From an uncultured bacterium (GTDB taxonomy: Bacteria; Cyanobacteriota; Vampirovibrionia; Gastranaerophilales; Gastranaerophilaceae), in contig CADCOS010000141.1 of assembly GCA_902803165.1 (NCBI GenBank), positions 1,037 through 65,036 of the forward strand: 64,000 nucleotides of DNA, written 5' to 3'. A program made the translations under genes and the position numbers. The notes beneath the pieces were generated by a model that had not been told where the DNA came from, searched no databases, and saw only the letters and a program-made list of their open reading frames with translations. Positions 15,491 through 57,128 of this stretch are shown in pieces. Each line of letters starts with the position of its first letter. Within the stretch, counting starts at the first letter, position 1.

Positions 15491-15518
15491 ATTACGGATA
15501 AATTAGTAAAAAACTTTA
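15491..15518 (-). promoter_or_regulatory. Sigma28-like promoter TAAAGTTT-N12-TCCGTAAT for member A
   Basis: Perfect extended -35; -10 diverges from GCCGATAA; spacing is one longer than canonical. Confidence 0.5.
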
Positions 15519-15534
15519 ATGATTTTAGAAAATT

Positions 15535-15552
15535 GTTACAAAAATTTACAAT
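15535..15552 (+). promoter_or_regulatory. Perfect HLR1-type direct repeat GTTACAAA-AA-TTTACAAT
   Basis: Exact match to KTTACAWW-NN-KTTACAWW. The 21-mer at 15531-15551 is repeated exactly (inverted) at 36276-36296. Confidence 0.7.
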
Positions 15553-15630
15553 ATTTTTTCTTAGTTAAAGCTAGTGTTGCGGAATTCGAAAAAATATGTA
15601 TAATATAATGGTGCGTAATATTTTTGCGGG

Positions 15631-16002
15631 GTGTCAGGTATGGATTCAATGATGGTGTCAGCGTTTCGAAATATGGAGAGACAAGCTATAAAGAATCGTT
15701 ATAATGAGATTTATTCTCATGAGCTTGCGCACAAAAATGCTGCGGGTTCTTTGGCAGGCCCTATTGTTATTGAAAAAAATTCAAAAGGCATACCTGTCGG
15801 AGGACACGTTTCTATAAAAATGCCAACATTGGATTATAACAATCCACAGAATACAATTAATCATGCTAACACTGTTATAAAAGCTGCGTTAGCTCCTTCT
15901 GATCCTTCAGGTCAAGATTATAAAGTTGCTGCTCAAGCAAAAAGTATAAAAGCAAAAGCTGAACGGGCGGCTAAAAACAAACATTTGGATTATTATGCAT
16001 AA
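15631..16002 (+). CDS. SprA-related putative metalloprotease-like small protein
   Basis: HELAH motif, AVGGHV-like GGHVSI segment and ALAPSDPSGQDYKVAA, typical of the SprA-related family. Start may be ATG 15640. Confidence 0.75.
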   Translation: MSGMDSMMVSAFRNMERQAIKNRYNEIYSHELAHKNAAGSLAGPIVIEKNSKGIPVGGHVSIKMPTLDYNNPQNTINHANTVIKAALAPSDPSGQDYKVAAQAKSIKAKAERAAKNKHLDYYA

Positions 16003-16059
16003 TTAATGTTAAGATTGATTAAATTTATAATTTTAGATGTTCACATATAAGTTTAATGA

Positions 16060-16896
16060 GTGTATGATTTAAGTATGATTGATTTATCGGAGTTATATTC
16101 TGAAGTCCCTCCGACAAAACTGCGTAATATTGATGAGAAGTTTTGTCCGGCAGCGACCTCAAAGTTTTGGAAATTAGTTGGTGATTTTGTCTTTTACAAA
16201 ATGTTAAAGACTCGTTTTTATGCATTTCGGTTTAAAGGTGCGGAAAATTTTCATTCAAAAGCTCCTGATATGCCTATTATAATGTATGCACCTCATTCAA
16301 ATTGGTGGGATGGAATTGTCGGTTATGCGACGTGTAATTGGATTTGTCATCAGGAAATGAGACTAATGGTTGAAGAACTGAAAAGGTTCCCTATACTTAG
16401 ACATGCAGGGTGCTTTAGTATAAATAAAAAGTCACCGCAAGCTTCTATGGAAGCTTTAAAGTATGCTATTCATGAGCTTGCTAATCCGAATTGTAATGTT
16501 TATTTGTACCCGCAAGGAATTATAAAACCGCCTAATTACAGACCAATTGAATTTCAGTCCGGTTTGGCTTATATGGTAGAAAAAGCAGTAAAGCGCTATG
16601 GTAAAGTAGGTTTAATACCTGTAGCAGTTAATTATTTCTTTTTAAGAGACAACAGACCGGAAGTATTTGTGGAATTTGGGAAACGTATAGAAGTTTTTCA
16701 TGAAGAAAAGAAAGATAGAAAAGAATTTACCGATTTTTTAGCAAAAAATTTGGAAACCTTATGTGACGGTCAAATGTATGATATTAGCCATGCAATATTT
16801 GATGGATATGATACTCTTTTCCAACAAAAACTCAAGTGGTACAGAAGAATTGAACAACGTTTAAAAAGAATTGAAAAACCGCGTTCAGGTGTTTAA
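16060..16896 (+). CDS. Lysophospholipid acyltransferase family protein
   Basis: HSNWWD (HxxxxD) and YPQG motifs. Confidence 0.85.
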   Translation: MYDLSMIDLSELYSEVPPTKLRNIDEKFCPAATSKFWKLVGDFVFYKMLKTRFYAFRFKGAENFHSKAPDMPIIMYAPHSNWWDGIVGYATCNWICHQEMRLMVEELKRFPILRHAGCFSINKKSPQASMEALKYAIHELANPNCNVYLYPQGIIKPPNYRPIEFQSGLAYMVEKAVKRYGKVGLIPVAVNYFFLRDNRPEVFVEFGKRIEVFHEEKKDRKEFTDFLAKNLETLCDGQMYDISHAIFDGYDTLFQQKLKWYRRIEQRLKRIEKPRSGV

Positions 16897-16899
16897 AAT

Positions 16900-18204
16900 T
16901 TATACCCTTCCGACACTAGTATAATCAAACCCTTTTTCTTTCATTTTCTCAGGGTTATATTGATTTCTGCCGTCAAATACTATCGGGGTTTTCATTAATG
17001 ATTTTATTTTTTCAAAATCGGGACGTCTGAATTCATTCCACTCTGTAAGTAACAGAAGCGCATCCGTATTTCCCAGAGCCGAATATGCTGACTGTGAATA
17101 GGTTATTGAACCTTCTTTAAAGATTTTTTTAGCGCTATCAATAGCTTTCGGATCGTATGCTTGAATTTTTGCCCCTCTTTTTATAAGTTCTTCAATTATT
17201 GTAATAGATGGTGCTTCTCTCATATCATCTGTTTTTGGCTTAAATGAAAGCCCCCAAACGGTAAATGTTTTACCGTGCAGGTTTTCTCCGAATTTATCCG
17301 TAATTTTTTTTACAAATTGAAGTCTTTGTTTGTTGTTTGTTTTGTCAACAGCAGATATAATATTCATCTCACATGAATTTTCTTCACCTGTCTTTATTAA
17401 CGCTTTAACATCTTTAGGAAAGCAGCTCCCGCCATACCCGATGCCCGGGAACAGAAATCTGTTTCCGATTCTTGTGTCTGTTGAAATACCGATTCTTACC
17501 ATTTCTGCGTCTGCTCCGACTTTTTCACATAAATTAGCTATTTCATTCATAAATGAAACTTTAGCTGCCAAAAAAGAATTAGCCGCATATTTTGTCATTT
17601 CGGCAGATTTAACATCCATCAATATAATTCTGTTTGCTGTTCTTAAAAATGGTGAATATATTTCCTGCATAATAGCAGTAGCTTTTTGTGAATCTGAACC
17701 AATTATAACTCTGTCAGGCGAAAGAAAATCATCAACAGCATTTCCTTGCTTCAAAAATTCGGGATTTGACACAATATCAAACGGAATATCTGTTTTTGAT
17801 TTTATAAATTCTGTTAATTTTTCTGCCGTACCAACAGGGACGGTTGATTTATCAACAATAACTTTATATTCATTCAGACCTTTAGCAATTTCTTCGGCAA
17901 CAGAATAAACAACGCTTAAATCAGCAGCTCCGCTTTTGTCTTGAGGAGTTCCGACTGCTATATAACAAACTTTAGAAACCTTTACTGATTCAGCAATATC
18001 AGATGAAAAACTAAGCCTTTTCTCCTCAAAATTTACTTTTACAAGCTCTTCCAATCCCGGTTCGTATATTGGAATAATACCGTTTTTGAGTTTATTAAGT
18101 TTTTCAATATCATTATCAACACAGATTACGTCATTACCCATATCTGCAAGGCAGGCTCCTGCAACTAATCCGACATAACCTGTTCCGATTACGGTAATTT
18201 TCAT
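16900..18204 (-). CDS. ugd: UDP-glucose 6-dehydrogenase
   Basis: GTGYVG, KSTVPVGT, NPEFLKQG, GYGGSCFPKD. Confidence 0.96.
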   Translation of the reverse strand: MKITVIGTGYVGLVAGACLADMGNDVICVDNDIEKLNKLKNGIIPIYEPGLEELVKVNFEEKRLSFSSDIAESVKVSKVCYIAVGTPQDKSGAADLSVVYSVAEEIAKGLNEYKVIVDKSTVPVGTAEKLTEFIKSKTDIPFDIVSNPEFLKQGNAVDDFLSPDRVIIGSDSQKATAIMQEIYSPFLRTANRIILMDVKSAEMTKYAANSFLAAKVSFMNEIANLCEKVGADAEMVRIGISTDTRIGNRFLFPGIGYGGSCFPKDVKALIKTGEENSCEMNIISAVDKTNNKQRLQFVKKITDKFGENLHGKTFTVWGLSFKPKTDDMREAPSITIIEELIKRGAKIQAYDPKAIDSAKKIFKEGSITYSQSAYSALGNTDALLLLTEWNEFRRPDFEKIKSLMKTPIVFDGRNQYNPEKMKEKGFDYTSVGRV

Positions 18205-56745: not shown

Positions 56746-56818
56746 TTTTCATATCTCCTTAATTTATATTACTCTGCCGGTAAGGTTTTTAATTCCGACC
56801 CGGCTACACATTAGCAAT

Positions 56819-56847
56819 ATTCTAGTATGAAGGAGATTAAAAATCAA
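56819..56847 (-). promoter_or_regulatory. Sigma70-type promoter for metK
   Basis: TTGATT-N17-TAGAAT on the minus strand. Confidence 0.6.
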
Positions 56848-56873
56848 GTAATATAGCGTAAAAATATGCTTAA

Positions 56874-57032
56874 TTAAGCTATTTCGCCAAAATTAAAATC
56901 TTCGGTATTATTATCATCTGTTTTAAAAACGGAAATGTTTTTTGCATCAGTATTCTTAGAATCCCTTTCTATTTGCCGGTCTTCTCCATTGTTGGCAGTT
57001 ATGGATAGTATAAATTTACTGACGCTGTTCAT
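56874..57032 (-). CDS. Unannotated small protein (52 aa)
   Basis: MNSVSKFILSITANNGEDRQIERDSKNTDAKNISVFKTDDNNTEDFNFGEIA; AGGG RBS; directly downstream of a sigma28 promoter. Below the ORF-track length cutoff. Confidence 0.65.
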   Translation of the reverse strand: MNSVSKFILSITANNGEDRQIERDSKNTDAKNISVFKTDDNNTEDFNFGEIA

Positions 57033-57066
57033 TTGTATACCCTAACATTTTACTTCAACAATGTAT

Positions 57067-57093
57067 ATATCGGCTAAAATTTCTAAAACTTTA
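57067..57093 (-). promoter_or_regulatory. Sigma28 (FliA/SigD)-type promoter TAAAGTTT-N11-GCCGATAT
   Basis: Essentially a consensus match with exact spacing. Confidence 0.85.
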
Positions 57094-57102
57094 GAAATTT
57101 TA
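57075..57102. repeat. Perfect 13-bp-arm palindrome TAAAATTTCTAAA-AC-TTTAGAAATTTTA
   Basis: Arms 57075-57087 and 57090-57102 are exact reverse complements; overlaps the sigma28 -35 element and spacer. Confidence 0.8.
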
Positions 57103-57110
57103 TAAAAATT

Positions 57111-57128
57111 GTTACATAAATTCATAAT
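57111..57128 (+). promoter_or_regulatory. HLR1-like box GTTACATA-AA-TTCATAAT
   Basis: One perfect half-site plus a half-site with 2 mismatches, 17 nt upstream of the sigma28 -35. Confidence 0.45.

Follow-up and report, generated by a model that had tools for sequence, protein, structure and literature searches.

An HLR1-type box at a fixed distance upstream of sigma-28 promoters in a non-photosynthetic relative of cyanobacteria, and its possible recognition by RpaB

Classical sigma-28 promoters need no upstream activator. In cyanobacteria, the OmpR-family regulator RpaB acts through HLR1, an operator composed of two 8-nt direct repeats, (G/T)TTACA(T/A)(T/A), with a 2-nt separation (PMC6525291). 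Promoters activated by RpaB in Synechocystis have the centre of HLR1 at -66 to -45, and repressing sites are centred at -38 to +23 relative to the mapped transcription start site (TSS). Cyanobacterial HLR1 sites have been drawn in both orientations, with no statistics (Riediger papers). Homologues of RpaA, RpaB and NblS are present, with unknown function, in the Melainabacteria, a lineage without photosynthesis (Di Rienzi et al. 2013). We have analysed a 64,000-nt stretch, referred to as the window, that forms part of contig CADCOS010000141.1 (C141) of a 1.78-Mb metagenome-assembled genome (MAG) with a G+C content of 34%. The host is placed in the non-photosynthetic Melainabacteria (Vampirovibrionia), within the Gastranaerophilales, and is a gut or rumen relative of cyanobacteria. 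Three loci of this window, termed A, C and E, carry a tandem box upstream of a sigma-28 core promoter, and we argue that this box is probably an HLR1-type operator of RpaB.

An earlier note on this DNA had claimed that a shared 21-mer and sigma-28 elements recur at three loci with gaps of 16 (A), 28 (C) and 17 nt (E) between TGTAAC and the -35 element, and this proved to be real. The 21-mer, TTGTAAATTTTTGTAACAATT, is found as exact copies at 15551-15531(-) and 36276-36296(+), for which 0.02 were expected by chance, and as a third copy with 3 mismatches at 57127-57107(-). There are four copies of TGTAACAATT in the window as compared to 0.55 expected; the fourth of these, at 27579, lies within an open reading frame (ORF), has no promoter and is unrelated. 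All three loci contain a TGTAA(A/C)-N4-TGTAAC tandem box followed by TAAAGTTT-N11/12-(G/T)CCG(A/T)(T/A)A, and the flanks of the three loci are unrelated to one another. Judged by their sequence, these core promoters are of the textbook FliA type and, as had been claimed, their elements match the consensus TAAAGTTT-N11-GCCGATAA. Transcription would start near 15484 at locus A and near 57060 at locus E. The boxes and cores are as follows.

15533-15550, minus strand: locus A HLR1-type box, TGTAAATTTT-TGTAACAA, which in reverse complement reads GTTACAAA-AA-TTTACA and matches HLR1 perfectly.
15491-15518, minus strand: locus A sigma-28 core, with -35 TAAAGTTT at 15518-15511, a 12-nt spacer and -10 TCCGTAAT at 15498-15491.
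36277-36294, plus strand: locus C HLR1-type box, identical to the locus A box.
36321-36347, plus strand: locus C sigma-28 core, with -35 TAAAGTTT at 36321-36328, an 11-nt spacer and -10 GCCGTTAA at 36340-36347.
57109-57126, minus strand: locus E box, perfect in its proximal half, TGTAACAA, but degenerate in the distal one (TATGAA).
57067-57093, minus strand: locus E sigma-28 core, with -35 TAAAGTTT at 57093-57086, an 11-nt spacer and -10 GCCGATAT at 57074-57067.

A scan of the whole genome for the motif, as the earlier note had proposed, detected the box at more than 40 promoters, a recurrence that the note had missed together with the tandem 10-bp repeat within the box. Perfect copies of TGTAA[AC]-N4-TGTAA[AC] number 46, of which 43 are intergenic, as compared to an expectation of 0.8 derived from a third-order Markov model of intergenic DNA (the intergenic share being 10% of the genome). 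Most boxes are followed by a co-oriented gene start 67-102 nt downstream, and a box is present at ~25 of the ~31 credible sigma-28 promoters (~80%). Among the 33 sigma-28 cores with a perfect -35 element, 19 bear a box when up to one mismatch is allowed, and the distance from the end of the box to the CCG of the -10 element is 37 nt in 17, 38 nt in one and 48 nt in one; a box in the opposite orientation was found at none of the 33. An ungapped alignment of 25 promoters (≤2 mismatches in the box and ≤1 in the -35 element) gave the box consensus TGTAAAttTTTGTAAcaA and the overall consensus aAtTGTAAAttTTTGTAAcaAtTt....aAAAa..tTAAAGTTTTt..aAAa..TGCCGttAtacAT, in which an A-tract separating the box from the -35 element is conserved.

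This 37-nt rule accommodates the window loci, at which the distance from TGTAAC to the CCG is 37 (A), 48 (C) and 37 nt (E). Locus A fits because the distance is counted to the CCG of the -10 element and not to the -35 element, and it keeps the rule despite displacement of its -35 by one base. The box of locus C lies 11 nt beyond the rule, corresponding to one helical turn (37 + 11); such a displacement, from 37 to 47 or 48 nt, is tolerated in two promoters of the genome. The 21-mer itself is shared by four loci.

Conservation of this arrangement extends across related genomes. Six orthologous locus A promoters, whose proteins are 44-50% identical, align with ungapped spacing and conserve only TGTAACAATTT, TTAAAGTTTT, the -10 element and the ribosome-binding site (RBS); the proximal half of the box, TGTAACAATTT, is invariant in all six and the other flanks have diverged. 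Exact matches to the composite of box and sigma-28 core were detected in each of 24 congeneric genomes (24/24; 5-28 matches per genome), with 0 for reversed-pattern controls, and also in two genomes of another family. Within the family to which the MAG belongs (f1), the box word is enriched over its reversed control throughout the genomes sampled, as it is in many true cyanobacteria.

Two direct repeats in tandem, with a period of 10 bp (TGTAAAtttt / TGTAACaatt), make up the box, and the reverse complement of the locus A and C box, GTTACAAA-AA-TTTACAAN, agrees with HLR1 at every specified position. With the TSS assumed to lie 7 nt after the -10 element, the box would span approximately -66 to -49 with a centre near -58, inside the window from which HLR1 activates in Synechocystis. 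The genome encodes an RpaB orthologue (C154:1166-1957) that scores 353.8 bits on NCBIfam NF045944, above the equivalog cut-off of 330, as well as two OmpR-family paralogues (C70 and C147) with ~200 bits on the same model. Two Synechococcus-labelled RpaB proteins, these cyanobacterial references being MAG records and not model strains, have exactly the recognition helix of the orthologue, DTRVVDVHISRLRSKLE, which differs in both paralogues. A FliA/WhiG sigma factor is encoded at C32:29904-30752 (TIGR02479, 230 bits versus a cut-off of 189.6). Thus the earlier note's guess of an OmpR-type activator was borne out to the extent that the box corresponds to HLR1 of OmpR-family RpaB and an RpaB orthologue is encoded, and the absence of a sigma-28-family gene, which it had named as grounds for refutation, is not what the genome shows. 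Taken together, these similarities make it somewhat probable that the box is an HLR1-type operator of RpaB.

Other known promoter elements were also compared with the box. An NtcA site (GTA-N8-TAC) was ruled out, as the box is a 10-bp direct repeat with TAA instead of TAC and is too far upstream. A PhoB-type box substituting for the -35 element was ruled out by the intact -35 found 17 nt downstream. The RpaA operator, TAAA-N7-TTAA abutting the -35, does not describe the box, which has a period of 10 and not 11 bp, a different word and a 17-nt gap to the -35. Nor does an upstream promoter (UP) element, an A/T-rich run from -59 to -38 with no specific G/C, since the G and C of the box are near-invariant; any likeness to a proximal UP subsite is confined to the A-tract that separates the box from the -35.

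Use of the box is not restricted to sigma-28. At 37 or 39 nt (box end to ACTTT) it also precedes a second core class, here termed class X, with the pattern (T)TGAAATT-N15-ACTTTATATATATGTAAG, and it is further found before a GTCAATTT class and before sigma-70-like promoters. Genes downstream of these non-sigma-28 boxes include rpsJ (S10), a gdhA-like gene and flagellin, as well as those for a family-2 glycosyltransferase, a starch-synthase-like protein, a CitMHS transporter, RNase Y and phosphoglucomutase. The earlier proposal had treated the box as a partner specific to sigma-28, and this did not survive the finding of the same distance before the second core class and the sigma-70-like promoters of housekeeping genes.

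From the architecture, its statistics and conservation and the presence of rpaB and fliA, all of which come from the analysis, we infer binding, activation, polymerase contact and TSS positions. A dimer of the RpaB orthologue would bind the box, which lies 17 nt before an intact -35 and is predicted to keep to one face of the helix, through two head-to-tail 8-bp half-sites with a 10-bp period. Phosphorylated RpaB at approximately -58 would act as a class-I-type activator by recruiting RNA polymerase or stabilising it, with the contact probably made by the alpha C-terminal domain (alpha-CTD) on the A-tract between the box and the -35, and FliA would read the TAAAGTTT / GCCGATA core. Activation would be independent of the sigma factor that reads the core, with the same box and -10 distance serving other holoenzymes. 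Since other holoenzymes share this box and distance, RpaB would regulate globally in this organism, and the sigma-28 promoters, with their regulon of lineage-specific orphans, would plausibly form its largest promoter class. We assign a probability of roughly 0.6 to the reading as a whole, namely class-I-type activation by RpaB from this box.

Several observations weigh against this reading. Two relatives with composites (G020 and G031, 99%-complete) have no RpaB match above the cut-off, and the genome encodes the two RpaA-like paralogues as alternative binders. The orientation of the box is strict here as opposed to the two orientations of HLR1 in cyanobacteria. An NblS equivalog above the cut-off was not found in the genome; the best NblS-like kinase (C77:17768-19021) is truncated by the contig end and has NblS as its top NCBIfam match, with 175.9 bits versus a cut-off of 1000. 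An exact-match search did not find the composite in other families of the order despite their having both RpaB and FliA, and enrichment of the box there was weak. Because these families hold both proteins without the exact composite, coupling of the box to sigma-28 is a lineage-specific trait and not a necessary consequence of having both proteins.

The two relatives with no RpaB match above the cut-off raise the prospect that another regulator, most plausibly an RpaA-like paralogue, binds the box and activates in the class I manner. Both paralogues have S. elongatus RpaA as their best match in the PDB (262.7 and 217.9 bits), and RpaA binds head-to-tail TAAA-containing repeats and activates through the alpha-CTD and sigma region 4. 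However, the RpaA site abuts the -35 whereas the box repeats TGTAA(A/C) with a 10-bp period and is 17 nt away from that element, the RpaB orthologue has the cyanobacterial recognition helix whilst those of the paralogues diverge from it, and the box agrees with HLR1 throughout its specified positions; we consider this explanation improbable. A somewhat smaller chance attaches to a factor-independent upstream element, acting by direct alpha-CTD recognition or DNA curvature as a general strength module. In its favour, the box keeps one fixed distance from the -10 element in three or more core promoter classes, an A-tract separates it from the -35, and it is found before rpsJ and other housekeeping genes, as would be expected of a general UP-like element too. 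Against it, UP elements are A/T runs without invariant G/C, whereas no positions here are better conserved than the G and C of TGTAAC; direct repeats arranged in tandem every 10 bp are a hallmark of winged-helix dimers, and in the sister lineage this word is the operator known for RpaB. The occurrence of the 21-mer at four loci, and of upstream regions on C6 and C23 that are ~90% identical over ~110 nt before different genes, could alternatively mean that a promoter cassette was copied together with a growing gene family or with mobile DNA, with no selection on a regulatory site. This seems very unlikely given that the flanks at loci A, C and E are unrelated and the downstream genes mostly so, that only the box, -35, -10 and RBS are invariant in orthologous promoters of diverged species, and that orientation and distance are fixed in 24 genomes.

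The genes served by the sigma-28/box promoters are nearly all lineage-specific and mostly unrelated to one another. Those of the window, together with further boxes and promoter candidates, are listed here.

14483-15451, minus strand: locus A gene, 322 aa, MGMAASQARL family, the long helices at both termini being conserved.
36529-37147, plus strand: locus C genes, an 89-aa ORF (36529-36798) and a 109-aa ORF (36818-37147).
56874-57032, minus strand: first ORF of locus E, 52 aa, no family; 128 nt further on lies metK (55477-56745).
36430-36505, plus strand: second, proximal promoter candidate at locus C, with a 1-mismatch box, TGTTAACATTTGTAAA, at 36430-36445 and a class-X-like core, TTTATATATGTGTAGG, at 36487-36502.
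40851-40866, plus strand: further perfect box, TGTAACAAATTGTAAA, 69 nt before a 1934-aa ORF, with a non-sigma-28 core and TATAAA 34 nt downstream.
58387-58402, minus strand: 1-mismatch box, TGTTAACAAATGTAAA, 150 nt before the flagellin gene 57238-58236, with TATAAT 40 nt downstream and no sigma-28 core.
7847-7862, minus strand: 1-mismatch box, TGTTACAATTTGTAAA, 21 nt before the start codon of gene 6926-7825.
Class X sites: C28:87, C142:12132, C147:25915, C165:570, C114:27930, C126:1962 and C143:2114, and 36430-36505 of the window.

Pfam searches returned no family for the targets at the three window loci or for nine large targets of sigma-28. The MGMAASQAR family has at least 173 homologues, which are unnamed, and its members in this genome are the locus A protein and proteins on C52, C6 and C154 (C154:41-1018). 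An AF2 model of the locus A protein (pLDDT 84) has long N- and C-terminal helices flanking an alpha/beta middle domain, and a Foldseek search of this model against the PDB gave no significant match, only generic coiled coils (best E = 0.03). The 109-aa ORF of locus C starts with MGLITSSYRM, ends with ...AIDNAIQSSFSYKL and is a short coiled-coil relative of the termini of this family. The supposed link of these promoters to the MGMAASQAR family stands in full for locus A only, as locus C encodes a distant relative together with the 89-aa ORF and locus E an unrelated 52-aa ORF. Assignment to a 'late-flagellar programme' was overstated, the sigma factor being its sole basis and the targets being orphans without a Pfam family. 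Photosynthesis or light-acclimation genes did not emerge as the regulon of the box, which instead precedes genes for orphan proteins and flagellin as well as housekeeping genes.

The rpaB orthologue is convergent with the MGMAASQAR-family gene C154:41-1018 (starting MGLACANIRLL...), at a distance of 148 nt, and the sigma-28/box promoter of the latter is located on an adjoining contig end (C37:15661-15719). Two very large orphans were also observed: the 1934-aa ORF (40936-46740, plus strand), which has no Pfam family and the perfect box 69 nt upstream, and a 1916-aa protein on C51 with a sigma-28/box promoter. Three flagellin genes have three promoter layouts. That of the window, 57238-58236(-), combines a 1-mismatch box with TATAAT; of the other two, C21:7548 has the sigma-28 core described above but no box, and C120:10230 a perfect box with a non-sigma-28 core. 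A terminator-like hairpin (57183-57164) separates the locus E unit from the upstream flagellin gene.

The proximal candidate at locus C lies just upstream of the ORF start at 36529 and has a core 2 nt out of the class X register, such that a second promoter at 36430-36505 is proposed tentatively. The product of gene 6926-7825 is probably an Era-type GTPase, based on an N-terminal GxxxxGKS motif; the box at 7847-7862 would overlap its core promoter, a placement that represses in cyanobacteria. An Rfam scan of the window found no family, with no riboswitch in the long locus C leader or before metK. Positions 20000-32000 have a G+C content of 25-31% versus 33-36% elsewhere and mainly minus-strand genes, and may be an acquired or surface-polysaccharide island.

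Elsewhere in the genome, C6:9574-9690 and C23:2866-2980, each comprising a terminator-like hairpin, a box and a sigma-28 core, are ~90% identical over ~110 nt with unrelated genes downstream, and a promoter cassette appears to have been duplicated between them. Some sigma-28 promoters that lack a box have long (TAC/GTA)n trinucleotide or (GATAT)n pentanucleotide repeats precisely in its place (C114:27824-27902, C139:211-305, C31:20124 and C87:15700), and these are candidates for phase-variable promoters. The genome contains ~10 sigma-70-family genes, including a SigF-like and a second FliA-like gene. Synechocystis RpaB has a single thioredoxin-target cysteine, C59, in the receiver domain. In an alignment, residue ~81 (alpha-3) of the RpaB orthologue is Thr where the Synechococcus-labelled L043 has Cys; this Cys may be the equivalent of C59, and the thioredoxin redox input is probably absent here.

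The arrangement of box and sigma-28 core suggests what an 'orphan' RpaB controls in a cell without photosynthesis. Among the papers searched, none combined HLR1 with Melainabacteria in this sense and none described this arrangement. If the boxes are RpaB sites, then RpaB acquired its DNA specificity before photosynthesis arose, the RpaB regulon of a fermentative gut bacterium becomes readable from genomes, and sigma-28 promoters, usually independent of activators, here offer a clear example from nature of control by a response regulator that acts from a constant upstream position. A more speculative proposal, to which we give distinctly less credence, is that RpaB and HLR1 are an ancestral global pair predating oxygenic photosynthesis that was rewired in gut Gastranaerophilales as an obligatory co-activator of most FliA-dependent promoters, coupling an envelope or redox signal to a large number of lineage-specific proteins of flagellin-like architecture, which are maybe exported by the flagellar apparatus.

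The closest known system is HLR1 with RpaB (Ycf27, Rre26) of oxygenic cyanobacteria and red-lineage plastids, with which the present case shares the operator word, an orthologous regulator with an identical recognition helix and a predicted box position inside the Synechocystis activating window. The differences are that the host is non-photosynthetic, that the targets are sigma-28-driven orphans, flagellin and housekeeping genes instead of photosystem or high-light genes, that the partner holoenzyme is often FliA and not the primary sigma factor, and that orientation and distance are strictly fixed. In addition, the probable counterpart of Synechocystis C59 is a threonine by alignment, and a putative NblS partner is represented by a fragment below the cut-off. 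Resemblance to the FliA (sigma-28/SigD) class III promoters of Enterobacteria and Bacillus resides in the core, the fliA gene and the presence of the core at one or more flagellin genes; unlike those promoters, ~80% of the present set have a putative response-regulator box at a constant distance upstream, and the targets are for the most part not recognisably flagellar or chemotaxis genes. In the RpaA complex at PkaiBC (PDB 9DVT), the RpaA site (TAAA-N7-TTAA) abuts the -35 and the protein touches sigma region 4, whereas the box described here, 17 nt before the -35, is too far away for a sigma-4 contact.

Class I CRP-dependent promoters have the activator site centred at -61.5, or one turn further out at -72.5. 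The sigma-28/box promoters resemble these in having the putative activator site upstream of a complete core and in tolerating displacement by one helical turn; they differ in the protein family and in that the box is a direct and not an inverted repeat, so that its orientation matters.

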